From a virus (lineage: Duplodnaviria > Heunggongvirae > Uroviricota > Caudoviricetes): 11,053 bases of DNA. A program made the position numbers and the translations under genes. Location of the stretch: IMG/VR virus record IMGVR_UViG_2585427766_000020, positions 1-11,053 of that record; one strand, given 5' to 3'. How positions within the stretch are numbered: position 1 is the stretch's first letter; each line of letters begins with the position of its first letter. Of the stretch, positions 1 through 11,053 are shown one piece after another. The notes under the pieces are model-generated. The model was not told the origin of the DNA and ran no database searches. It saw only the letters and a list, made by a program, of their open reading frames with translations.

Positions 1-273
1 CCGACTGCGGCCTGAGTTTTTTAAGTGACGTAAAATCGTGTTGAGGCCAACGCCCATAATGCGGGCAGTTGCCCGGCATCCAACGCCATTCATGGCCATA
101 TCAATGATTTTCTGGTGCGTACCGGGTTGAGAAGCGGTGTAAGTGAACTGCAGTTGCCATGTTTTACGGCAGTGAGAGCAGAGATAGCGCTGATGTCCGG
201 CGGTGCTTTTGCCGTTACGCACCACCCCGTCAGTAGCTGAACAGGAGGGACAGCTGATAGAAACAGAAGCCAC
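1..273 (-). CDS. insA: IS1 InsA (transposition regulator), 91 codons; stop codon lies just outside the window
   Basis: Minus-strand translation from GTG at 271-273 gives [18 protein letters not shown]...[12 protein letters not shown], matching InsA as I remember it. The 90-302 ORF in the supplied track is a different frame and is not InsA. Confidence 0.88.
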
Positions 274-301
274 TGGAGCACCTCAAAAACACCATCATAC
301 A

Positions 302-1096
302 CTAAATCAGTAAGTTGGCAGCATCACCTGAAAACGCTTTGTGGATTTTACCCATTTCTTCGACTTTTGCAGCACGCAGTTGATCCATTACTTTGTCATA
401 AGAGAATCCAGAAGAGTAGATACGATACCCTTTCAGAAACTTTTCATGCAGACGCTGAATATTGTCCAGTAAATAAGCGAATACTAGAGGTGAATCAATT
501 CCATCACTAACTGCTTGGATACTTTCAATCAGAATATCTAGCTTCTGATCCTTATGGGTATCATCATTGAAACAAGCTATAAGGTTATCAAGATACTCTC
601 TTTGCAAATTTTGTACATTTTCTGCAGCGAAGTGCGGTAATAGCTTGATAACTTCTTTTTTCAGAAAAACTAACTGACAAGTTGAGTTATCAAAGTAGGC
701 CGCGGCCTCTTTTAGCAGGTTAACGAACTCGAGAATCTTCCGGTAGTTGCTGATGAAAACGGGGATATCTTCATCATCATTACGAAACTTTGTTTCTAGG
801 ATGAAGTAATTAGCTGGCTCAAGGCACTGATGCTTTGGAGCATTTAGCAATTTTTCATGGGTGGAAAACACAAGTCCCAGTCCACTCCGTGGTGACGTCA
901 CACGTAGGATGATCGTGTTACCTGGAGCGATAGTGCCTGTATCAATAGAAAGACCATATTCACGAGGATCATCAAGCAAAGTATCAACCAGATCACAATC
1001 GGACTGATCTAAGAGCAACAGCGAACCGACACGAAACCCCTCTTGGAATTCCATACGACGATACAGATCTGTCAGCATCTCAAATGAAATCGCCAC
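302..1096 (-). CDS. Hypothetical protein, second gene of the YejK-like operon; C-terminus truncated by IS1 (last 8 codons GDAANLLI + stop are encoded by the IS1 repeat)
   Basis: GTG start at 1094-1096 with GAGG Shine-Dalgarno 7 nt upstream, 2-nt gap to the upstream gene's stop (translational coupling). Low GC. No domain recognisable by eye. 302-328 is IS1 sequence. Confidence 0.7.
   Translation of the reverse strand: MAISFEMLTDLYRRMEFQEGFRVGSLLLLDQSDCDLVDTLLDDPREYGLSIDTGTIAPGNTIILRVTSPRSGLGLVFSTHEKLLNAPKHQCLEPANYFILETKFRNDDEDIPVFISNYRKILEFVNLLKEAAAYFDNSTCQLVFLKKEVIKLLPHFAAENVQNLQREYLDNLIACFNDDTHKDQKLDILIESIQAVSDGIDSPLVFAYLLDNIQRLHEKFLKGYRIYSSGFSYDKVMDQLRAAKVEEMGKIHKAFSGDAANLLI
306..328 (-). 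repeat. IS1 terminal inverted repeat (insA-proximal end, 23 bp)
   Basis: Direct read: atcagtaagttggcagcatcacc on the + strand, the reverse complement of the IS1 IR. Confidence 0.9.
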
Positions 1097-1098
1097 GA

Positions 1099-2106
1099 TT
1101 AAACCTCAGTCATCCACATTTCCCTAAATTCTTCAGGTACATTACGTAGGGTGATAATATTTGTTTCCGGATCATAATCAATATAGCCTTCAGTTTTCCC
1201 TTCCCGGTCAAACTTAAGTTCCCAATATTTAGACTTGCCTTTAAAAGATACCAGAGCCCGAATGACTCGACCATCAGGAACGAAGCCATCCGATAACTCC
1301 AACTCTTCAGCAGCAAGTTTACCAGATAACTCCTCGGGAGCCTGGGGCCAAATGGCATTAACAAGGGTTTCAAGACTAAGTGGTTCACCAGCCTTACTTA
1401 GTGCATGTAAGTGTTCAAACGCACTCTTAAGAAATGCATCTTTTTCAGCGCCGTCAAGTCCTTTCTCTGCCGCAAATGCTTTTAAAACGTCACGTAACTT
1501 TTCAGACTCTCGTTTGGCGATTAAGACATCATTACAGCCGAGGAACTGTTTAAAATAGTTTGAAACATTACCTTGCCCCTTAAGAAAACTGATATAGCGC
1601 TCTGCGCCACTTTCCCACGCGGTTAAGTCAATGCGCCCAGCCATACGCAGCTTAGCAATATCAAGATAGGTACTATCTTGGATGTTAAAATCATCTGTGA
1701 CAGTGGATCCAATGGTAGCGCTTACAATAGCTATCAACAGGTGTTCATTGTGTCCTATCACGATATTTGCAAAAAGAACATAACCACCAGTAGCCATGTT
1801 TTCTCGCTGAGAACGTTCCGTCAGGTGATGCATCATTCGGCAGGAACTTTGGTAGAAATCATCAACACCTTCGAGAAAGTCCCCAGCCATTCGTTCCATA
1901 GGATAGTTATCCGTATCGCCTTCAAAATAGCCATAACCTTTACCTGTGCGTCCTGCATATTTTGCACAAATATCGTTTATAAGGCGCTGGGAGGCTTCAG
2001 TAACTAGACCTTCTTCAGGACTCAATCTCTCAGAAGCGTCTCCATTTTGTTGTTTGTCTAAAATGTGAACTACAACGTGTTTAACTTCAATGGTCTGCTC
2101 AGACAT
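1099..2106 (-). CDS. YejK/NdpA-family (NA37) nucleoid-associated protein homolog, 335 aa, mobile-element-borne divergent copy
   Basis: Same length as E. coli YejK (335 aa). Core TYLDIAKLRMAGRIDLTAWESGAERYISFLKG matches the remembered YejK block [20 protein letters not shown]...RYLTFLKG; C-terminal YIDYDPETNIITL resembles IFWDPATDTLTI. SD AAGGTGGA 6 nt upstream of ATG. AT-rich codon usage unlike the neighbouring phage genes. Confidence 0.8.
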   Translation of the reverse strand: MSEQTIEVKHVVVHILDKQQNGDASERLSPEEGLVTEASQRLINDICAKYAGRTGKGYGYFEGDTDNYPMERMAGDFLEGVDDFYQSSCRMMHHLTERSQRENMATGGYVLFANIVIGHNEHLLIAIVSATIGSTVTDDFNIQDSTYLDIAKLRMAGRIDLTAWESGAERYISFLKGQGNVSNYFKQFLGCNDVLIAKRESEKLRDVLKAFAAEKGLDGAEKDAFLKSAFEHLHALSKAGEPLSLETLVNAIWPQAPEELSGKLAAEELELSDGFVPDGRVIRALVSFKGKSKYWELKFDREGKTEGYIDYDPETNIITLRNVPEEFREMWMTEV

Positions 2107-2176
2107 TAGCTATCCACCTTATTTTTTATTGCTTAATGGCAAATAATTTCTGCTATATGTTCTCGTTAGGAACACA

Positions 2177-2584
2177 TTAACCCACATTTTTTAACCGCTC
2201 AATCGTTGCGGATAATTCCTTCAGTTGTTTTTCCATCTCAATCACACGCTGTTTTTCTTCAGCGCCTCGCATGAGATCTCGCCGAACCTCAGGATCTAAC
2301 TGGTTTAGAAGTTCAAGCATTTTAAGGTCTGACGGGCTGAATTGATGTTGTGTTGGTACAGCAACAATTTCTTTAGATGGAATATGTTCTTTACCGGTAA
2401 GTAGCCAATCGATCGATACACCCAAATGGGTGCTTAGCGCAACAAGAGCCTCTGCGTTTGGTTCTCTCTCTCCACGCAAATAGTTTTGAAGTGAGCGATA
2501 TGGAATTTTTGATAAGTTAGATAATGCCTTTATTGTCATGCCATTAGCATCCATCACTTCACGCAATCTCTCTTTTGTACTCAT
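2177..2584 (-). CDS. Phage repressor, XRE/CI-type HTH DNA-binding protein (135 aa) with coiled-coil C-terminal half and no S24 peptidase domain
   Basis: MSTKERLREVMDANGMTIKALSNLSKIPYRSLQNYLRGEREPNAEALVALSTHLGVSIDWLL is a typical HTH_XRE fold signature. Leftward, divergent from the early operon. ATG at 2582-2584 chosen over the 2680 start, which would overlap the rightward gene and promoter. Confidence 0.8.
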   Translation of the reverse strand: MSTKERLREVMDANGMTIKALSNLSKIPYRSLQNYLRGEREPNAEALVALSTHLGVSIDWLLTGKEHIPSKEIVAVPTQHQFSPSDLKMLELLNQLDPEVRRDLMRGAEEKQRVIEMEKQLKELSATIERLKNVG

Positions 2585-2600
2585 TTGAACATATCTCAAT

Positions 2601-2628
2601 TTGACACACTCATTTGGGTGTGTACAAT
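2601..2628 (+). promoter_or_regulatory. Sigma70-type early promoter for the rightward operon: TTGACA (2601-2606), 16-bp spacer, TACAAT (2623-2628)
   Basis: Near-consensus hexamers read directly, about 45 bp upstream of the Cro/Ner-like start. Confidence 0.55.
2604..2623. promoter_or_regulatory. Candidate repressor operator: inverted repeat ACACAC-N8-GTGTGT inside the early promoter spacer
   Basis: Perfect 6-bp arms read directly; lies between -35 and -10 where a repressor would occlude RNA polymerase. Confidence 0.45.
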
Positions 2629-2672
2629 AGACCCAATAGAGTACATCATAACCTAACAGGAACACGGTGCAT

Positions 2673-2897
2673 ATGAACAAACAACAAGTTCGGGCACGGC
2701 TGGTTGAACGAGGCAGTAGCTTGCGCCAGTTCGCGCTTAACGCGGGCTATGAACCACGAACAGTCACCCAGGCAGTCAGTCGCTGGGCTGGTAAAAGTGA
2801 ACTACCTCGCGGTCGTTTGACTTATCGGATTTTGCGAGATCTATCGGTTGCAATAGGTAAAGAAGTTACCCCCGGTATCCTTAAGGAGGCGTCATGA
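2673..2897 (+). CDS. Cro/Ner-like small DNA-binding protein (about 74 aa)
   Basis: First rightward gene after the switch. RLVERGSSLRQFALNAGYEPRTVTQAVS resembles the Mu Ner HTH region in pattern. ATG 2673 preferred; GTG 2667 is an alternative. Stop overlaps the next start (ATGA at 2894-2897). Confidence 0.6.
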   Translation: MNKQQVRARLVERGSSLRQFALNAGYEPRTVTQAVSRWAGKSELPRGRLTYRILRDLSVAIGKEVTPGILKEAS

Positions 2898-3202
2898 ATA
2901 AACCAAATACATCAAGCTCAGGTACCCGTATTTTGCGCGTTCTTAAGGCCTTACGTGGCCACGCTTTGAACGGTGTTTCTAACGGGGAACTAGCGGTTGC
3001 ACTGCACGAATCACCGGCAAACATCAACCGGGCACTTAACACGCTCATTGAAGAAGGGTTGGCTCTGAAACTAGAAAACGGGCGTTTCGCACCAGGCATC
3101 CAGTTGCTGCAGATCGCCATGGCCCACAGTAACGAGATGGCACGTGCACAGGATCGCATTAACGAAATCAACCAACGTGTTATTTCAGGTAGTCGTTTGT
3201 AA
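2894..3202 (+). CDS. Winged-helix HTH DNA-binding protein (102 aa), hypothetical
   Basis: Strong SD AAGGAGG at 2883-2889. ILRVLKALRGHALNGVSNGELAVALHESPANINRALNTLIEEGLA looks like a MarR/IclR-type wHTH. Confidence 0.6.
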   Translation: MNKPNTSSSGTRILRVLKALRGHALNGVSNGELAVALHESPANINRALNTLIEEGLALKLENGRFAPGIQLLQIAMAHSNEMARAQDRINEINQRVISGSRL

Positions 3203-3212
3203 GGAGTAATCA

Positions 3213-4124
3213 ATGGGACGCACCAAATCACCGGTTAGCACTGAACTGAACGTCGAGGTACCGCTGTCGGATGATCTCAATGTCAGTCTAAACGCCATGA
3301 CACAGCATCGCATGGAAATCATGCAACAGTTCGGCGATGGTCTGCCCTATGAGCGCGATCGTGTTGTCCATGAGGCACGCTTTTATATGGCACAGAGCGC
3401 TGAGGCCATGCTGGAGGCAGGTAAGCGGCTGATAATCCTTAAGGAAAATGAACCACACGGGGAGTTTATAAAGATTCTTGAAAGTGAGTTGGGGCTGGCA
3501 TACCGGACATCTGTGAGAATGATGCAAGCATCGACAAAATACTTATCCCCGGCGCTGAAACCAAATGTGCCAACGTTGGCACATTTGGGAAAAGCCAAAC
3601 TTTTCGAATTAATGACAGAAGACGACGAAGAGCTTGCCGAACTGGCCGACGGCGGCACAGTTGCCGGCCTGACGCTTGACGACGTTGATCGCATGTCAGT
3701 ACGTGAATTGCGTCAGGCCCTGCGCGAAGCGCGCGAAACCAACGCAGCACAACAGCGCGTACTCGCTGACAAAAATGAAAAAATAGACTCACTCTCCACC
3801 AGACTGGAGAAGAAATCCCGTATTCAGCCGCCTGAGCCTGATGAAGAGGTTAAGAAGCTGCGGGCGGAAGTGACAGCATTAGCGGTTGAGGCGGAATCTG
3901 CTATCGCCGTTCGACTGTCCAGCGCTTTTGAGACGCTGTGCGCATATTGTGCTGAAAACATGATTGATACCCCCAGAGACTTCATGGCAGGCCTGGTCTG
4001 TCAACTGGAAAGCACAGCGCGTAGCCTGCGCTCCACATTTGACCTGCCGGATGAGCCAACAGGCAATGCCGCGCCTTCATGGCTGACTGAGCCGACGCCA
4101 CAGATTAACGGGCTGGAGGCATAA
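3213..4124 (+). CDS. Hypothetical coiled-coil protein (303 aa) located between the regulators and the transposase
   Basis: SD AAGGAG at 3201-3206. Long intact ORF in the operon; C-terminal half has heptad-like charged repeats. No family confidently recognised. Confidence 0.6.
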   Translation: MGRTKSPVSTELNVEVPLSDDLNVSLNAMTQHRMEIMQQFGDGLPYERDRVVHEARFYMAQSAEAMLEAGKRLIILKENEPHGEFIKILESELGLAYRTSVRMMQASTKYLSPALKPNVPTLAHLGKAKLFELMTEDDEELAELADGGTVAGLTLDDVDRMSVRELRQALREARETNAAQQRVLADKNEKIDSLSTRLEKKSRIQPPEPDEEVKKLRAEVTALAVEAESAIAVRLSSAFETLCAYCAENMIDTPRDFMAGLVCQLESTARSLRSTFDLPDEPTGNAAPSWLTEPTPQINGLEA

Positions 4125-4127
4125 CCA

Positions 4128-5897
4128 ATGAATGCTGCCCTGACTGAACGACTGGTTTATGTCGCCCGCGCGGCACGTGACGCGGGGCATGGTAAACGCG
4201 GTGCAATATACGACGCTGCCTGTGCTGAACTTGGCATGTCCCGCGCCACTCTGCTGCGCAGGCTGAAGGAGGTCTCTGTGACTGATAAACGCAAAAAACG
4301 CGCTGATGCCGGACGCAGCGCCCTGACCCGCGACGAAGCCGCGCTGATATCTGCCACACTGCGTGAGGCCACCCGCAAGAACGGTAAGCGTCTCTATTCC
4401 ATCGCGGATGCAGTGGAAACCCTGCGGGCTAACGGCTTTATCTCCGCAGGCAGAACAGATGAAACCACCGGTGAGTTTTTCCCGTTGTCCGAAGATGCCA
4501 TCAGTCGTGCCCTGCGTAACTATGGCCTGCACCCGGAACAACTGGATGCTCCTGCGCCGCATACCGAAGTGGCCAGTCTGCATCCCAATCATGTCTGGCA
4601 GATTGATGCCTCGCTCTGCACGCTTTACTACCTGAGCAATGGACACAAAGGGCTGCAGGTGATGGACAGCGCGAAGTTCTACAAGAACAAACCCGCTAAC
4701 CTTGCCCGTATCGCCAGTGACCGCGTGTGGAGTTACGAGATTACCGACCATGCCAGCGGCTGGATTTACGTTGAGTATGTGACGGGTGCGGAATCCGGTG
4801 AGAACCTGTGTTCTGTGCTTATCAACGCCATGCAGGAGCGTGGCGGCGCAGACGTGCTGCACGGCGTGCCAAAAATACTCTATCTCGACCCCGGTTCGGC
4901 AAACACCGCGGGTATGACGAAAAACATGTGCCGCTCACTGGGCATTGACCTGATAGCGCACAAGCCGCATAACGCCCGCGCCACCGGACAGGTGGAAAAG
5001 GCGCGTGACATTATCGAACGCAAGCTGGAGCCGGGTCTGAAGTTCCGGCCGGTTCACAGTCTGGAAGAACTCAACGCGCTGGCCGCGAAATGGCGCAGCC
5101 ACTTTAACGCCACGGCTGTTCACAGCCGCCACGGTAAAACCCGCACGGATATCTGGCTGAAGATTACTGCTGAGCAGCTGAAAAAAGCGCCTTCCGTTGA
5201 GGTATGTCGTGAACTGGCTGTGGCGGCACCAGAACTCCGCAAAGTCACGCCAAAACTTCGTGTCTCGTTCCGGGGCACTGAATTTGACGTATCAACGGTA
5301 CCGGGCGTACTGGTCGGTGAAAAACTGATGATTACCCGTAACCCGTGGCGCAGCGATGTGGCACAGGTGGTTCTGACCGGTGAGGACGGCCACGAGACGT
5401 TCTTCCTGGTCGAAGAGGTCAGAAAGAACGAGTTTGGCTTTGCTGAAGGCGCGGCGGTATTTGGCGAAAGTTACAAAGCCCTGCCGGAAACCCCGGCGCA
5501 GATGGCGGCAAAAGAAACCGAAGCGCTGGTCACCGGTACAGACAACGCCGCAGATGCAGCTGCCGCACGCAAGGCGAAGGCGCTGCCGTTCGGCGGGCGG
5601 CTTGACCCGTATAAACATATTGATGACGCCACACTTCCGGCCTATATGCCGAAGCGAGGTCAGGCCTCTGACGTACGCGGACCGCGCACTGAACAGCGTC
5701 CCATGACTCATGTGGAGGCCGCGAAAGCCCTGCGCGGGAAGTTCAGCGCCAACGGCCTTACCTGGACGCCGGAACATTACCGCCAGTTAACGGCACAGTA
5801 CCCGGACGGCGTACCGGAAGCCGCACTGGATGAAGTCATGGCCACGCTGACCACGCCGGCCCGCAGCAGTGTTATCAGCATTGTTAACGGCAACTGA
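4128..5897 (+). CDS. DDE transposase of a transposable phage (Mu A-like, rve/integrase-core family), 589 aa
   Basis: SD GGAGG at 4115-4119. HPNHVWQIDASLCTLYY is typical of the first catalytic-Asp region of rve-type transposases. Followed by a B-like ATPase and by gam, gemA-like and mor. Confidence 0.8.
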   Translation: MNAALTERLVYVARAARDAGHGKRGAIYDAACAELGMSRATLLRRLKEVSVTDKRKKRADAGRSALTRDEAALISATLREATRKNGKRLYSIADAVETLRANGFISAGRTDETTGEFFPLSEDAISRALRNYGLHPEQLDAPAPHTEVASLHPNHVWQIDASLCTLYYLSNGHKGLQVMDSAKFYKNKPANLARIASDRVWSYEITDHASGWIYVEYVTGAESGENLCSVLINAMQERGGADVLHGVPKILYLDPGSANTAGMTKNMCRSLGIDLIAHKPHNARATGQVEKARDIIERKLEPGLKFRPVHSLEELNALAAKWRSHFNATAVHSRHGKTRTDIWLKITAEQLKKAPSVEVCRELAVAAPELRKVTPKLRVSFRGTEFDVSTVPGVLVGEKLMITRNPWRSDVAQVVLTGEDGHETFFLVEEVRKNEFGFAEGAAVFGESYKALPETPAQMAAKETEALVTGTDNAADAAAARKAKALPFGGRLDPYKHIDDATLPAYMPKRGQASDVRGPRTEQRPMTHVEAAKALRGKFSANGLTWTPEHYRQLTAQYPDGVPEAALDEVMATLTTPARSSVISIVNGN

Positions 5898-5907
5898 GGA
5901 GGAAAAC

Positions 5908-7074
5908 ATGCTGGTACTGAAGCAGCAACTGAAAGAGGCCCGTATTTCACAGGCGGTGGTGGCGAGAGCTGTCGATGTTTCTGAGGCCACGCTGGCCCAG
6001 ATTGTGAATCATAACGCGTGGCCCCGCACCAGCCCCGGAGAAGTGCGCCGGCGTCTTGCGTCCTGGCTGGAAAGTCAGGGGATTGATACAGCGAAGAGTT
6101 TTGATGCTGTACAGGGCGCGGCCACGCCCCGTACATCGGGTACCACAGATAAAACGAGCCTCAGTGAGGAAGAGAATATGTTACTCAAAAAACAGGTGTT
6201 ATTTCCAGCAACCAAAAAAGCGTTTGGTCTTTTCCGTGACCCGTTCGCCGACGAAGCCATGCAGGGTTCTGATGATGTGTTCACCACCCCGGACATTCGC
6301 TACGTGCGTGAGGCGTTGTACCAGACAGCACGTCATGGTGGGTTTATGGCCGTCATCGGTGAGTCCGGTGCGGGTAAATCCACGCTGCGCCGTGACCTGA
6401 CTGAACGTATCAACCGCGAGAATGCGCCAGTGATTGTTATCGAGCCATACATCATCGCTATGGAAGACAACGATGTGAAAGGGAAAACTCTGAAGGCAGC
6501 AGCGATTGCCGAAGCCATTATCAGTACCATCGCACCACTGGAAAGCATCAGACGCAGTCAGGACGCCCGCTTTCGCCAGTTGCATCGCGTCCTGAAAGAC
6601 AGCAGCCAGGCGGGGTTCAGCCACGTTCTGGTGATTGAGGAGGCCCACAGTCTGCCCATTCCGACACTGAAACACCTCAAACGCTTTTTTGAGCTGGAGT
6701 CCGGTTTCAAAAAACTGCTGTCCATCGTGCTAATTGGTCAGCCGGAACTGGCGACAAAACTGTCTGAACGCAATATGGAAGTCCGTGAAGTCGTTCAGCG
6801 CTGTGAGGTGGTCGAACTTCTGCCTCTGGACAATAACCTTGAAGAATTTCTGACGTTCAAACTGCAACGGGCCGGTAAACAACTGACGGACATTATGGAC
6901 GCCAGCGCAGTGGATGCCATACGTGCCCGCCTGAGCAATCCGGGAAGTCATCGTAAAAATATGGTCAGCCTGCTGTATCCGCTGGCCGTCAGTAACCTGG
7001 TAATAGCCGCCATGAATCTGGCTGCTGAAATCGGGGTTCCACAGGTCAACGCTGACGTTGTCAAAGGGGTTTAA
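5908..7074 (+). CDS. AAA+ ATPase, transposition target-DNA activator (Mu B-like/TniB-like), 388 aa
   Basis: SD GAGGAGG at 5896-5902, ATG 5908. N-terminal HTH-like segment, then Walker A GESGAGKST and Walker B-like HVLVIEEAH. Sits immediately after the transposase as in Mu A-B. Confidence 0.8.
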   Translation: MLVLKQQLKEARISQAVVARAVDVSEATLAQIVNHNAWPRTSPGEVRRRLASWLESQGIDTAKSFDAVQGAATPRTSGTTDKTSLSEEENMLLKKQVLFPATKKAFGLFRDPFADEAMQGSDDVFTTPDIRYVREALYQTARHGGFMAVIGESGAGKSTLRRDLTERINRENAPVIVIEPYIIAMEDNDVKGKTLKAAAIAEAIISTIAPLESIRRSQDARFRQLHRVLKDSSQAGFSHVLVIEEAHSLPIPTLKHLKRFFELESGFKKLLSIVLIGQPELATKLSERNMEVREVVQRCEVVELLPLDNNLEEFLTFKLQRAGKQLTDIMDASAVDAIRARLSNPGSHRKNMVSLLYPLAVSNLVIAAMNLAAEIGVPQVNADVVKGV

Positions 7075-7076
7075 TA

Positions 7077-7346
7077 ATGAAATCCACCACAGGTATCAAC
7101 CAGCAAATCAGCAAAGTGCAGTCAGCCATTATGGCGCTTAAGGCGACGAACACGGATGTACAAAGCATCACCATCAGGGGGAACAAACCTGTCATCCGCG
7201 TTTCCCGGAGTGCGCATTGCATGCGCATGCTTGAGCAGGGAAAGGCCTGTTATCTGTATACCGGACATGACCACAGGGGATATTTCCGTCAGGGCGTTTT
7301 CGAACTGCACGGCTGTCGCGTCGTGTGGCCGGAATCTTTGTGGTAA
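7077..7346 (+). CDS. Hypothetical early protein (89 aa)
   Basis: Intact ORF 2 nt after the B-like stop, same strand and operon. No family recognised. Confidence 0.5.
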   Translation: MKSTTGINQQISKVQSAIMALKATNTDVQSITIRGNKPVIRVSRSAHCMRMLEQGKACYLYTGHDHRGYFRQGVFELHGCRVVWPESLW

Positions 7347-7373
7347 TCAGCACAACCGGAGAAATCATAAAAA

Positions 7374-7904
7374 ATGGCAAAAAGTACAAAAGGTGCAAAA
7401 CGTATCAAGGCCGCAGCAGCACTCTGGGTGCCGGGGACACGTGAAGAGGTCATTGAGGGCATCAGACTGCTCGGTGACGCACACCGTGAACTGGTCAGGG
7501 CTGAAACAGAAATGAATGACGCCATTGGCGATATCACCGCACGTTATGCCCCGCTCACCGAGAGCCTGAAAAAACGCATGGCCGAACTGCAGTCCGGTAT
7601 TCAGACATGGTGTGAGGCACACCGTGATGAACTGACCGGCAACGGGAAGGTGAAGTTCGCTAACCTCACCACCGGCGAGGTGCAGTGGCGAAACCGTCCG
7701 CCATCAGTCAGTATCCGTGGGGCGGATAATGTTATTGAATTACTGAGACGTCTGGGGCTTGAGCGCTTTATCCGTGTAAAGGAGGAAATAAATAAAGACG
7801 CTATCCTGAATGAAAAGGACGCCGTGAAAAATATTCCCGGTATTACCATAAAAAGTGATATTGAGGATTTTTCAATAATTCCTTTTGAGCAGGATGTGCA
7901 GTAA
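7374..7904 (+). CDS. gam: Host-nuclease inhibitor protein Gam (Mu Gam family; binds DNA ends, protects against RecBCD)
   Basis: 176 aa. Blocks ETEMNDAI, WCEA.RDELT, PPSVSIRG and GIT.KS.IEDFSIIPFEQ match Mu Gam (174 aa) as I remember it. Confidence 0.9.
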   Translation: MAKSTKGAKRIKAAAALWVPGTREEVIEGIRLLGDAHRELVRAETEMNDAIGDITARYAPLTESLKKRMAELQSGIQTWCEAHRDELTGNGKVKFANLTTGEVQWRNRPPSVSIRGADNVIELLRRLGLERFIRVKEEINKDAILNEKDAVKNIPGITIKSDIEDFSIIPFEQDVQ

Positions 7905-8001
7905 ACACACCACGTTAATTATTTAATAAAAACATTTTCTTTTTTATTCCGGCGTCAGCGCCGTGGGCTTCTGCACGCCGGAAACAGAGGAGAATTAAAT
8001 T

Positions 8002-8196
8002 ATGATATTTAAATGTATTCAGTGCGAGAGGGATATAACAGCCCTGCGTTTTCACAGCGCCATCGCCGTGATGTCCGGTAAATACCACATCCCTGCGGTA
8101 CGCGTCACCCTGGTCTGCCCGTACTGCAGCCAGCATTTTTCGGCAGACGTGCCCGTCATGGAATTCTCCCGCCCTGACAGGGAGGACTCGCAATGA
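8002..8196 (+). CDS. Small zinc-ribbon-like protein (64 aa), hypothetical
   Basis: Two CxxC pairs (CIQC...CPYC). SD GAGGAG at 7987-7992. Stop overlaps the next start. Confidence 0.5.
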   Translation: MIFKCIQCERDITALRFHSAIAVMSGKYHIPAVRVTLVCPYCSQHFSADVPVMEFSRPDREDSQ

Positions 8197-8465
8197 TTAC
8201 CCCACAGGAAGCACGACAGCGCACCCGAACCCTTGTTGAACACTATGTCAACGAGTGTGAATGCCGCGACCTCACCGATGTGAAGCACGTCCTGACGGCG
8301 CTAATCAGCATGACCGCTCAGGCCATTGTGGCGACCAACGGAAAGGCGGCTGCCCTGCAGGTACTGGTGAACACACTAACCCACACGGCAGCGCATGAGG
8401 TGCCGTACCGGATGGAAACCACTGCAGAAGGCGGTCTGCACATCACCGTCAGCCGGAATCACTGA
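8193..8465 (+). CDS. Hypothetical protein (90 aa)
   Basis: ATGA start/stop overlap with the upstream gene; GC-rich coding-like composition. No family recognised. Confidence 0.5.
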   Translation: MITPQEARQRTRTLVEHYVNECECRDLTDVKHVLTALISMTAQAIVATNGKAAALQVLVNTLTHTAAHEVPYRMETTAEGGLHITVSRNH

Positions 8466-8474
8466 GGGCGCAGC

Positions 8475-8780
8475 ATGACACGGTACACCATACTCACCCG
8501 CACCGCCCTCTACCGTCTGGCCCTGCAGCGTTTCGGGCCGGACGCACAGGCCCTGAAACTGACAGAAGAGGCCGCTGAACTGGCAGCCTGTGCTGCCCGC
8601 AACCTGAACGGACAGGGCAGTGAAAGTGACCTCGCGGCAGAGCTGGCAGACGTGGAAATCATGACAGAGCAGTTGCGCCTTCAGGGGATGGACCGGCTGA
8701 TTGACTTCCACAAACAGAAAAAACTGGAACGCCTTGCCGCACGGCTGGGCGTCATGTACACCGGAGATACTGAACAATGA
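8475..8780 (+). CDS. MazG-like nucleotide pyrophosphohydrolase family protein (101 aa)
   Basis: LKLTEEAAELAACAARNL...ESDLAAELADVEIM resembles the EExxE / ELADV helical signature of small MazG-like all-alpha NTP pyrophosphatases. Assignment from motif pattern only. Confidence 0.6.
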   Translation: MTRYTILTRTALYRLALQRFGPDAQALKLTEEAAELAACAARNLNGQGSESDLAAELADVEIMTEQLRLQGMDRLIDFHKQKKLERLAARLGVMYTGDTEQ

Positions 8781-9460
8781 CAGACTTGGATAAACACATT
8801 GAAAAACTGAAAAAGTTGCTGGCGCTGGCAGCATCCGGCAACCCGTATGAGGCTGCTCTGGCACTGCGCCGCGCCCGTAAACTGATGGATGTTCACGGCA
8901 TCACACATTCCGACATTGCCATGAGTGATATTGATGAAACCATCAGTCATTACTGGCCGACAGGCAGTCTCCGTCCACCGCGCTACATGCTGGGCCTGAT
9001 GAACATCATCCGCGAGGCATTTGGTGTTAACTCCATAATTCACCCCGGCACATATCCGGGTGTGGGGTTCTACGGCAACCGGGAACGGGCCGCACTGGCT
9101 GCGTACACCTGGGAAGTGCTGGCCCGCCAGCTGAAAAAGGCGCGTCAGCAGTATATCAGCGCACAGAACAAAAGAATAAAAACTGCCACCCGTACCAGCC
9201 GTGGTGACCAGTTTGCTGAAGGCTGGGTGCTGGCCGTTATCAGTGAAATACAGTCCTTCGCCCTGACCGATGACGAACGTGAACTGATGCAGCAGTGGCT
9301 GGAACATAAATACCCGCAGACGCAAACCACCAGGGCGCGTAAACCGGGAAGAAGCCGCAATGGCGACGCCTCGCGCTATGCGGGGTTTCGTGAAGGGCAG
9401 AACGTCAGACTGCACCGCCCGGTCAGTGGGCAGGAACAACAGAAACTGGAGGCCAGATGA
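8777..9460 (+). CDS. DUF2786-like phage protein (227 aa)
   Basis: N-terminal IEKLKKLLALAASGNPYEAALALRRARKLM is the characteristic DUF2786 motif, common in Mu-like and other phages. ATGA overlap with the upstream stop. Confidence 0.65.
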   Translation: MTDLDKHIEKLKKLLALAASGNPYEAALALRRARKLMDVHGITHSDIAMSDIDETISHYWPTGSLRPPRYMLGLMNIIREAFGVNSIIHPGTYPGVGFYGNRERAALAAYTWEVLARQLKKARQQYISAQNKRIKTATRTSRGDQFAEGWVLAVISEIQSFALTDDERELMQQWLEHKYPQTQTTRARKPGRSRNGDASRYAGFREGQNVRLHRPVSGQEQQKLEAR

Positions 9461-9687
9461 TTACGCTATCAGGTAACAGCCGGAAATTAAAAGCCTGCCG
9501 AATATCTGCCAGATACCTTTTTGCCCGCGCCTTTTTTAAGAACGTAAGGCCGGGGATCACAATTGGTGTTATTGCCGGACGCGAACAGGTTGAAAAATAC
9601 ATGTCAGGTGCATGGTGGAATAACGACCCTGTCATTGCTGCCCGTAATATTCATATCAGTTGGGGGGATATTCAGAATGACGGCTGA
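9457..9687 (+). CDS. Hypothetical protein (76 aa)
   Basis: ATGA overlap with upstream gene; in-operon ORF. Confidence 0.45.
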   Translation: MITLSGNSRKLKACRISARYLFARAFFKNVRPGITIGVIAGREQVEKYMSGAWWNNDPVIAARNIHISWGDIQNDG

Positions 9688-9892
9688 ATCTGTTGTATGT
9701 GCCCTGTTCTGGTATTGTTTTGTCGGTTGGTGTACTGCTGAACTGCACCGCCGTTCAGGGTTTTATTCACGTTACAGTGGTGCCGGCTACTGGATTAGCT
9801 GGTCGGTGATGTTCCTGTGCTGGCCTGTGGCGCTTCCTTTATATGTCGATTATATCGGTGGCGCAGGTAAAAGGAGCAACGATGATGACTAA
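9677..9892 (+). CDS. Small membrane protein with two predicted transmembrane segments (about 71 aa)
   Basis: Internal ATG at 9677 of the 9563-9892 ORF chosen to minimise overlap. Hydrophobic stretches VVCALFWYCFVGWC and YWISWSVMFLCWPVALPLYV. Confidence 0.45.
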   Translation: MTAESVVCALFWYCFVGWCTAELHRRSGFYSRYSGAGYWISWSVMFLCWPVALPLYVDYIGGAGKRSNDDD

Positions 9893-10334
9893 ACAACGTC
9901 TTATCCAGCTCATTCATATTGCCCGTAATGAACTGGGTATGGATGAAGACACCTACCGCCAGATGTTACAGGGGCTGACCGGTAAAGCCTCAACCAAAGG
10001 AATGGATACCACACAACTAAACTGCGTGCTGGAATCCATGAAAAGGAAAGGCTTTCGCGTTAAGCCTGCCAGAAAAGCCAGCTCCGGTTTACCGCTGGAT
10101 AACCATCCGCAGTCCAGGAAAATCCGTGCGCTATGGCTTGAAATGGCTGCTGCCGGCATTGTTCGTGACCGTTCAGAAAATGCATTAGCGCGGTGGATCA
10201 AGCGGGAAACGGGCATCAGCGCCCTGCGCTGGCTCAATACTGAACAGGCAAGCAGTGTTATTGAGAAACTGAAGAAGTGGCAGCACAGAGCTGCGGGAGT
10301 AAAACATGAGCGACCTGAATCAGTTTCGAAGTAA
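9882..10334 (+). CDS. gemA: GemA/gp16-like protein (Mu-like prophage gp16 family, DUF1018)
   Basis: SD AAGGAG at 9871-9876, ATG 9882. RLIQLIHIARNELGMDEDTYRQMLQGLTGKAS matches the remembered N-terminal signature of the Mu gp16/GemA family. Sits immediately upstream of mor as in Mu. Confidence 0.7.
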   Translation: MMTKQRLIQLIHIARNELGMDEDTYRQMLQGLTGKASTKGMDTTQLNCVLESMKRKGFRVKPARKASSGLPLDNHPQSRKIRALWLEMAAAGIVRDRSENALARWIKRETGISALRWLNTEQASSVIEKLKKWQHRAAGVKHERPESVSK

Positions 10335-10695
10335 AGGGCCGGAACTCCTGGTGGAACTGGCACAGCATACCTCTGAGACCGTTCGCGAGATTATTGATAT
10401 TGAGCCCGCAATTGCCGACCAGATTGGTCAGGCCGTCGCGAACCGCATGATGCAGGTCTGGGGCGGGCAAAACGTTTATTTCCCGATGGGCATGGTATGG
10501 AAGGTCAGTCAGCGCGACCGGGAAATCTTCAGGGAGTTTAACGGACGTAACCACCATGAACTGGCCCGCAAATTTGGTGTTTCGCTTCAGTGGGTCTACA
10601 GCGTGGTTAAGCGGGTAAGAAAAGAAGAACTGGATCGGATGCAGGGCAAGCTATTTGCTGATGAACCCGATGTAGATACGGAGAAAAAAGAGTAA
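10306..10695 (+). CDS. mor: Middle operon regulator Mor (Mor/C family transcription activator), 129 aa
   Basis: Same length as Mu Mor. VYFP and FNGRNHHELARKFGVSLQWVYSVVKRVRK match the Mor/C-family conserved FNGRN...Y and HTH region. Overlaps the gemA-like 3' end by 29 nt. Confidence 0.85.
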   Translation: MSDLNQFRSKGPELLVELAQHTSETVREIIDIEPAIADQIGQAVANRMMQVWGGQNVYFPMGMVWKVSQRDREIFREFNGRNHHELARKFGVSLQWVYSVVKRVRKEELDRMQGKLFADEPDVDTEKKE

Positions 10696-10724
10696 TATCT
10701 GCAATCAGGCTGGAGCGAGTTCTG

Positions 10725-11053
<329 letters not shown>

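Follow-up and report, generated by a model that had tools for sequence, protein, structure and literature searches.

A YejK-like NA37 gene in a BcepMu-like prophage as the predicted sensor gene of an IS1-disrupted cassette related to DS-1 and resembling Type II PANGU in architecture

What is a divergent relative of YejK, a nucleoid-associated protein, doing in a prophage of E. coli? The question is raised by a gene of the NA37 family in an 11,053-nucleotide stretch of DNA, referred to here as the window, which corresponds to positions 1 to 11,053 of the caudoviricete IMG/VR record IMGVR_UViG_2585427766_000020 (Table 1). An original prediction, made from the letters of this DNA, described the gene as a full-length YejK paralogue carried on a mobile element, where as a nucleoid protein it could remodel host or incoming DNA. 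The analysis described below indicates that the gene is one half of a two-gene operon. By its sequence and by analogy with known systems, the intact pair is probably an abortive-infection anti-phage cassette of the DS-1/Type II PANGU kind, carried as accessory cargo by a BcepMu-like prophage and inactive in the window.

The NA37 protein of the window is identical to WP_000003711.1. Its family membership is in agreement with the original prediction: the Pfam profile NA37 (PF04245) matches residues 12–327 over profile positions 1–324 of 325 (E=1e-80, 272.1 bits against a cutoff of 24.6), and in PHROGs the protein matches phrog_3767, “nucleoid associated protein” (E=7e-117). YejK from E. coli K-12 is likewise 335 residues long and is aligned end to end by BLASTP with 28% identity (E=4e-34), and the YejK structure 9be2_A is matched with E=7e-30. 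On the NCBIfam equivalog model for YejK, NF001557, the protein scores 186.2 bits, under the 341-bit cutoff. The identity of 28% over the whole length, together with the failed equivalog cutoff, identifies it as a divergent full-length paralogue and not as a fragment or a duplicate, as had been proposed. The description of the central core as retained holds for the YLDI...FLKG frame, but the stretch within it reads GRIDLTAWE, with Gly where Ala was expected, and the protein has diverged along its entire length, not in its outer thirds alone.

The housekeeping YejK is a single-copy core gene in the rplY-yejK-yejL neighbourhood, with one copy in each of 5426/5426 complete E. coli genomes, whereas the window gene is accessory and prophage-borne, and is present in 19 of the same 5426 genomes, inside a prophage. 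Its GC content is 42.7% and its GC3 34.8%, compared with 52.3% and 58.9% for yejK; the prophage core has a GC content of 50–59% and the neighbouring prophage genes a GC3 of 51–64%. The AT-rich composition and the horizontal acquisition on a mobile element, both part of the original prediction, are thus borne out, the element being a BcepMu-like prophage inserted in dkgA.

The notion of a stand-alone nucleoid protein does not survive a look at the adjacent gene, which encodes the membrane protein of ~400 residues that is referred to here as the partner. Only 2 nt separate the stop codon of NA37 from the GTG start of the partner gene (1096), and GAGG is found just upstream of this GTG. When one genome per species was scanned with a degenerate pattern, 80 partner loci were recovered in Alpha-, Beta-, Gamma- and “delta”-proteobacteria, 76 of them with upstream sequence. 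In 73 of these 76 an NA37 reading frame is located immediately upstream of the partner and co-oriented with it, usually overlapping it or a few nucleotides apart; the other three are Cupriavidus fragments that match the C-terminal half of the partner only. Close relatives of the NA37 protein are encoded on ten IMG/VR viral contigs, and on all ten an intact partner of 393–408 residues follows directly downstream. The phage collection contains six records with a partner, each time directly downstream of an NA37 gene (Klebsiella Kp4865-4, Sinorhizobium phi2LM21, Acinetobacter and gut phages), while 61 of its 67 NA37 records are solo, with no partner homologue (the F116 group and Vibrio phages). 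The solo NA37 genes of F116-like phages sit in recombination/replication modules beside RdgC, SSB and an exonuclease.

A three-gene system was considered and rejected, as the 113 neighbours at the 71 non-Mu loci are heterogeneous, with no more than three members for any Pfam family. Dam methylase was similarly rejected as a core component; it is found next to the partner in E. coli, Mixta, Brenneria and phi2LM21, and is absent from several other Mu-like carriers. Where present in the E. coli prophage (L001 4804-5574) and in phi2LM21 (L003 2882-3718), this Dam-type adenine methyltransferase is convergent and directly follows the partner, and in the Mu-like carriers that have none the holin comes straight after the partner.

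The intact partner allele, WP_001007985.1 (E. coli prophage locus L001: 5567-6769), is a protein of 401 residues with hydrophobic segments at 262–280, 290–308 and 356–374. Its N-terminal domain is acidic in 69/69 aligned members of the family, and that of the window copy has a charge of -12 and a pI of 4.8. AF2 models the partner with a pLDDT of 82.5 overall and of 91.3 over the N-domain, and the fold has no relative in the PDB. The Pfam search of the window proteins found no domain in the partner, and in PHROGs it matches phrog_5023, annotated as of unknown function (E=6e-143). The family is large, with ~1,300 representatives at 50% identity in a library of 1.84 billion proteins. Far from any NA37 gene, a stand-alone 208-residue homologue of only the motif-plus-membrane half of the partner occurs in Cupriavidus (L048, L049 and L051 10001-10606; plasmid NZ_CP082864.1 4535-5140).

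Both proteins of the pair have relatives in a system of demonstrated function. DS-1 (working identifier D390), made of DS-1A (WP_000355468.1) and DS-1B (WP_000150292.1), is an E. coli anti-phage pair that was validated by DefensePredictor, Science 2026 (PMC13092281), with a -log efficiency of plating of 7.6 for Bas1, 2.7 for Bas26, 1.7 for Bas3 and 1.7 for T3 (PMC13092281 Table S7). The window NA37 protein is matched by NCBIfam NF053868, “DS1_1 nucleoid-associated anti-phage protein”, with 63.7 bits (E=1.4e-17, cutoff 330), and the window partner by NF053869, “DS1_2 anti-phage protein”, with 45.0 bits (E=7.6e-12, cutoff 315). BLASTP aligns the NA37 protein to DS-1A with 23% identity over 196 residues (E=8e-9) and the partner to DS-1B with 23% over 302 residues (E=6e-10), and hhalign of a profile of 69 partners to DS-1B gives a probability of 95.8% over 272 columns. 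By these sequence scores the window pair is related to DS-1 and is not its equivalog. A closer relative, WP_077474557.1, an NA37 protein 40% identical to that of the window, is listed as a “predicted novel defense gene” of DefensePredictor with a log-odds of 11.7 (PMC13092281).

The second system of reference is Type II PANGU, in which a YejK-like nucleoid-associated protein (NAP), Pag2A, is paired with a transmembrane effector, Pag2B, bearing an acidic N-terminal DNA-mimic (DMK) domain (10.64898/2026.04.06.716658, bioRxiv April 2026). PANGU-Ecu, a system of uropathogenic E. coli, does not work without both of its genes and gives an abortive phenotype; upon T4 infection Pag2A leaves the nucleoid and binds the DNA-mimic domain of Pag2B with a KD of 19 nM, and T4 denA mutants, in which endonuclease II is inactivated, escape the system (10.64898/2026.04.06.716658). 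The logic proposed for that system is the best model at hand for the cassette of the window. By homology and architecture, an NA37 dimer of the intact cassette would reside on the host nucleoid until a superinfecting lytic phage degrades the host DNA. The NA37 protein thus released would bind the acidic, presumably DNA-mimicking N-terminal domain of the membrane partner, whose C-terminal helices might then compromise the membrane, so that the infected cell would die or stall before phage release. The cassette is probably expressed in the lysogen, since it immediately follows the repressor gene of the prophage in the same orientation, with a good Shine-Dalgarno sequence and no terminator in between. 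The promoter/terminator scan, which did no better than on shuffled sequence and is used solely for this last point, agrees with reading of the sequence in finding no terminator-like structure in the spacer; a weak promoter-like site at 2241-2212 falls inside the end of the repressor gene.

In the window this system is most likely dead, because IS1 cuts the partner after residue 256 and removes every membrane helix. Residues 1–256 are native (window 329-1096) and identical to the intact allele, after which the product diverges, with its final eight residues and the stop codon supplied by IS1. The product contains none of the three hydrophobic segments, and what is left of the partner is its acidic N-domain, which is cytoplasmic, together with half of a conserved motif, the first; the cut falls inside the most conserved stretch of the family, between GFSYDK..AKVEE.GKIHK.FS and DIQNQILGIPVATVIVATQ.K. 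By megablast, window positions 1-327 correspond to IS1A-family transposase loci, which occur at 73,309 places in 4,965/5,426 E. coli genomes with 99.4% identity, and 19/19 homologous prophages align to the window only from position 328 on. The same truncated allele is present in other assemblies as a 255-residue “partial” E. coli cluster of 27 members (P0026), in which all contigs stop at the IS1 repeat. The event may have been a simple insertion or a deletion of the prophage late region, between which these contigs do not distinguish. At the DNA level the NA37 gene has kept 100% identity to its counterparts in genomes where the operon is intact, which suggests that the IS1 event was recent.

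Several observations weigh against an anti-phage role. The identity to DS-1A and DS-1B is ~23% and both NCBIfam scores are far under the equivalog cutoffs; the defence role of the clade is a predicted one. PADLOC v2 matches neither protein, though the DS-1-type system post-dates that library. The match to PANGU-Ecu is one of architecture and not of a sequence comparison with Pag2A or Pag2B, and the membrane action of Pag2B-type effectors is itself left open in the source preprint (10.64898/2026.04.06.716658). The presumed co-transcription with the repressor is read from the absence of a terminator alone. Finally, of the three pore residues in the N-domain that are required for YejK to bind DNA, two are absent from the partner-linked NA37 proteins.

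This last point bears on how the NA37 protein would work. YejK is a dimeric clamp whose pore is lined by R173/R176/K177 and R276/R280/K284; DNA binding depends on these residues, and the triple mutation of R173/R176/K177 abolishes saturable DNA binding (PMC11229321). At window positions 1570-1590 (NA37 residues ~173–182), just after FLKG, the window protein has KG-QGN where YejK has KGRVGRK, and the basic cluster is lost. Among 70 aligned partner-linked NA37 proteins, 36 have Gly in place of R176 and 56 have Asp, Asn or Glu in place of K177, while the C-domain basic patch (R276/R280/K284) is kept or enriched, including in the window. The solo F116-type phage NA37 keeps the pore cluster as GKGGRK. 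Loss of the cluster possibly sets effector-coupled NA37 apart from housekeeping and solo NA37 and could serve as a diagnostic sequence signature. With two of three N-domain pore residues replaced, DNA clamping and nucleoid binding in the manner of YejK are not to be assumed for this clade. The partner-linked NA37 of Acinetobacter pragensis (L083 8594-9799) has an inserted acidic (QED)n repeat of ~26 residues just before the FLKG-equivalent motif.

A more speculative extension of the anti-phage role, which takes the residue pattern as its starting point and has to be regarded as doubtful, is that partner-linked NA37 no longer encircles DNA as YejK does, and that its re-tuned pore lets the acidic domain of the effector compete effectively with DNA, thereby setting the trigger threshold. 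Carried by temperate phages beside the repressor and lysis genes, the cassette could then be an “alarm” for host-genome integrity that belongs to the prophage and brings about the death of lysogens hit by DNA-degrading lytic phages, and the orphan NA37 left by IS1 may keep a residual nucleoid or regulatory activity.

Independently of its mode of action, the pair is accessory prophage cargo and sits close to the lysis genes, in slots that are variable or of the moron type. Six further genera have BcepMu-like prophages with the pair in this very slot (7 of the 80 loci). E. coli strain G5 has a related prophage in which the slot between the repressor and dam (L086 6455-6982) holds an unrelated protein of 175 residues, WP_001228474.1, which shows a weak match to phrog_10002 (unknown function) and represents an alternative cargo. 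Another Mu-like prophage, that of strain A35, has a more divergent pair immediately upstream of its holin gene. A further divergent pair, with an NA37 of 344 residues and a partner of 392 residues, separates antiterminator Q from a lambda-family holin in a lambdoid prophage of E. coli JX21CE8 (L101 3406-5608), where it is encoded on the opposite strand. The block of repressor, NA37 and partner has a GC content of 41–43% within an element of 50–59%. Non-prophage loci show the mixed neighbours typical of mobile elements or defence islands, and plasmid carriage of the pair is rare, with six records.

Among other explanations for this cargo, the one that survives best, though it is unlikely, is that NA37 is a self-standing nucleoid protein of the mobile element that tunes transcription, counters H-NS-type silencers or aids the choice of transposition targets, with a functionally separate partner; the orphan NA37 of the window might then still do that job. 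There are precedents, as Pnd of pCAR1, jointly with Pmr, influences how stably the plasmid is kept and how it is transferred (PMC6606824), and on the integrative and conjugative element (ICE) PAPI-1 NdpA2 works alongside TprA to oppose MvaT (PMC8565334). The solo NA37 genes in the recombination/replication modules of F116-like phages are also in line with such a role, and so is the window gene itself, which is intact and adjoins the repressor. However, NA37 of this clade is almost never solo (73/76 loci, 10/10 viral contigs), the two genes overlap or lie 2 nt apart, and validated defence homologues exist for both. The clade has lost the YejK pore residues that the solo F116 type keeps, and the related prophage without the cassette indicates that the phage can regulate itself and transpose in its absence. 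Of the roles put forward in the original prediction, the sensing of foreign DNA comes closest to that reported for the related systems, whereas no evidence bears on xenogeneic silencing or on target-site selection.

The position of the pair suggests another role, in the life cycle of the prophage, either as a lysis-timing or antiholin-like module or as a superinfection exclusion system that blocks DNA entry, with NA37 as a regulator. The pair lies directly upstream of the holin/SLT lysis genes, on the same strand, in BcepMu-like prophages and between Q and the holin in the lambdoid prophage, and the partner is a membrane protein with three helices. In the lambdoid prophage, however, it is on the strand opposite to the late operon, some 70 of the 80 loci lie outside such prophages among unrelated neighbours, and closely related prophages manage without the pair. 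Moreover, DS-1 and PANGU-Ecu protect E. coli K-12 when cloned alone, free of any prophage (PMC13092281; 10.64898/2026.04.06.716658), and a role in lysis or exclusion is accordingly considered improbable. Least probable is a toxin-antitoxin-like addiction module that stabilizes the prophage, with the membrane protein as toxin, NA37 as inhibitor and defence as incidental, which agrees with the translationally coupled two-gene layout, the membrane protein in second place and the location on mobile elements, but finds no match to a toxin-antitoxin family in Pfam, NCBIfam or PADLOC, while the loss of the presumed toxin and retention of the presumed antitoxin in the window are compatible with it and not diagnostic. 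All three explanations fit the conserved coupling, the homology to DS-1 and the cargo behaviour less well than an anti-phage cassette does.

Table 1. Features of the window, in order of position
Feature	Position	Strand	Remarks
IS1, terminal part	1..327	.	End (…ggcagcatcacc) adjoins the truncated partner gene
Truncated partner (effector) gene, DS-1B/Pag2B-like	302..1096	-	GTG start, 264 aa
NA37/YejK-like gene, presumed sensor of the pair (DS-1A/Pag2A-like)	1099..2106	-	ATG reading frame, 335 aa, intact
Spacer, repressor to NA37	2107..2176	-	70 nt; Shine-Dalgarno sequence of NA37 AAGGTGG
Prophage immunity repressor, HTH_3/CI-type	2177..2584	-	135 aa per RefSeq; Pfam HTH_3 E=4e-11, Phage_CI_repr E=5e-6
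BcepMu-like early operon, divergent from the repressor	2667..10695	+	Pfam; identical contig L087
Prophage end	10696..10856	.	...CA at 10855-10856
dkgA, 5' part (2,5-didehydrogluconate reductase A), host gene interrupted by the prophage	10857..11053	-	100% identity to E. coli dkgA from 10857; reading frame 10850-11053

The carrier of the cassette has the characteristics of a Mu/BcepMu-like element: a transposase, a MuB-type ATPase, Gam and Mor, varied insertion sites, and a repressor divergent from the early operon. The latter comprises a ner-like gene, a helix-turn-helix (HTH) gene, DUF3102, a DDE transposase (4128-5897), a MuB-like AAA ATPase (5908-7074), Gam (7374-7904), DUF2786, a GemA-like gene and Mor (10306-10695), with Pfam matches to rve, AAA_22, Phage_Mu_Gam (E=1e-40) and Mor (E=1e-43). 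Homology to the prophages inserted in hycH and ycaL runs to ~10857–10860, and the presence of near-identical prophages in these genes of other strains indicates that the element transposed recently. In complete relatives the gene order is repressor, NA37, partner, convergent Dam methylase, holin/SLT lysis genes and late genes.

The repressor is located directly upstream of NA37 on the same strand and has a GC content of 41%, like the cassette. It shares only ~82% identity with the repressor of strain G5, whereas the adjacent ner-like gene has an identical product in the two (WP_001041677.1). An AT-rich and diverged repressor next to an identical ner-like product suggests that the immunity gene and the cargo block were exchanged as a unit. 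The longest reading frame of the repressor in the window (2177-2680) would start at TTG and encode 167 residues, while its RefSeq relatives have 135 residues and start at 2584.

Carriage of NA37 by mobile elements is not new, as Pnd of pCAR1, NdpA2 of PAPI-1, gp13 of phage F116 and PHROG 3767 are already documented. Both NA37-based defence and mobile-borne NA37 have been described before, and the window pair is a distant, disrupted and predicted member found as prophage cargo. Should the intact version protect against phages, the class of NAP-based “genome-integrity” sensors would gain a large partner family that has no Pfam model, would extend to temperate phages and to the cargo or moron slots of Mu-like and lambdoid prophages, and would acquire in the loss of the pore cluster a signature useful for annotation. 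For the window itself the lesson is a smaller one: “nucleoid-associated protein” is misleading as an annotation for half of a putative defence operon, which is broken by IS1 in the window strain.

Comparison with the known systems places the window pair at some distance from each of them. The NA37 protein shares with E. coli YejK the Pfam family and the length, and the core hydrophobic elements and the C-domain dimerization elements align, but unlike yejK the window gene is AT-rich and forms an operon with a gene for a membrane protein.

With DS-1 the pair shares the NA37 gene in first place, the 2-nt gap and a homologous second gene of similar length (401 residues against 404 for DS-1B), as well as the motif FS..K...L......KI....S..Q...L.IP, conserved before the hydrophobic region of the partners. 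DS-1A contains an additional N-terminal zinc-ribbon, which is missing in the window protein (391 against 335 residues), and the hydrophobic segments of DS-1B are lower on a Kyte-Doolittle scan. Protection has been shown for DS-1, while a defence role of the window clade is predicted through the protein of 40% identity.

The window cassette is prophage cargo, a setting that is absent from the text of the PANGU preprint, where the word “prophage” occurs 0 times (10.64898/2026.04.06.716658). The window copy of the partner is without its whole transmembrane (TM) region, and the basic cluster of the YejK N-domain pore is not conserved in the window clade. The pair and Type II PANGU are both bicistronic with NA37 first, the 2-nt gap of the window lies within the intergenic distance of less than 40 bp that is used to recognize the Type II operon, and the intact partners combine an acidic cytoplasmic N-domain with a C-terminal TM region of three hydrophobic helices. 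Both belong to Pseudomonadota, where defence genes or mobile genes are frequently close by.

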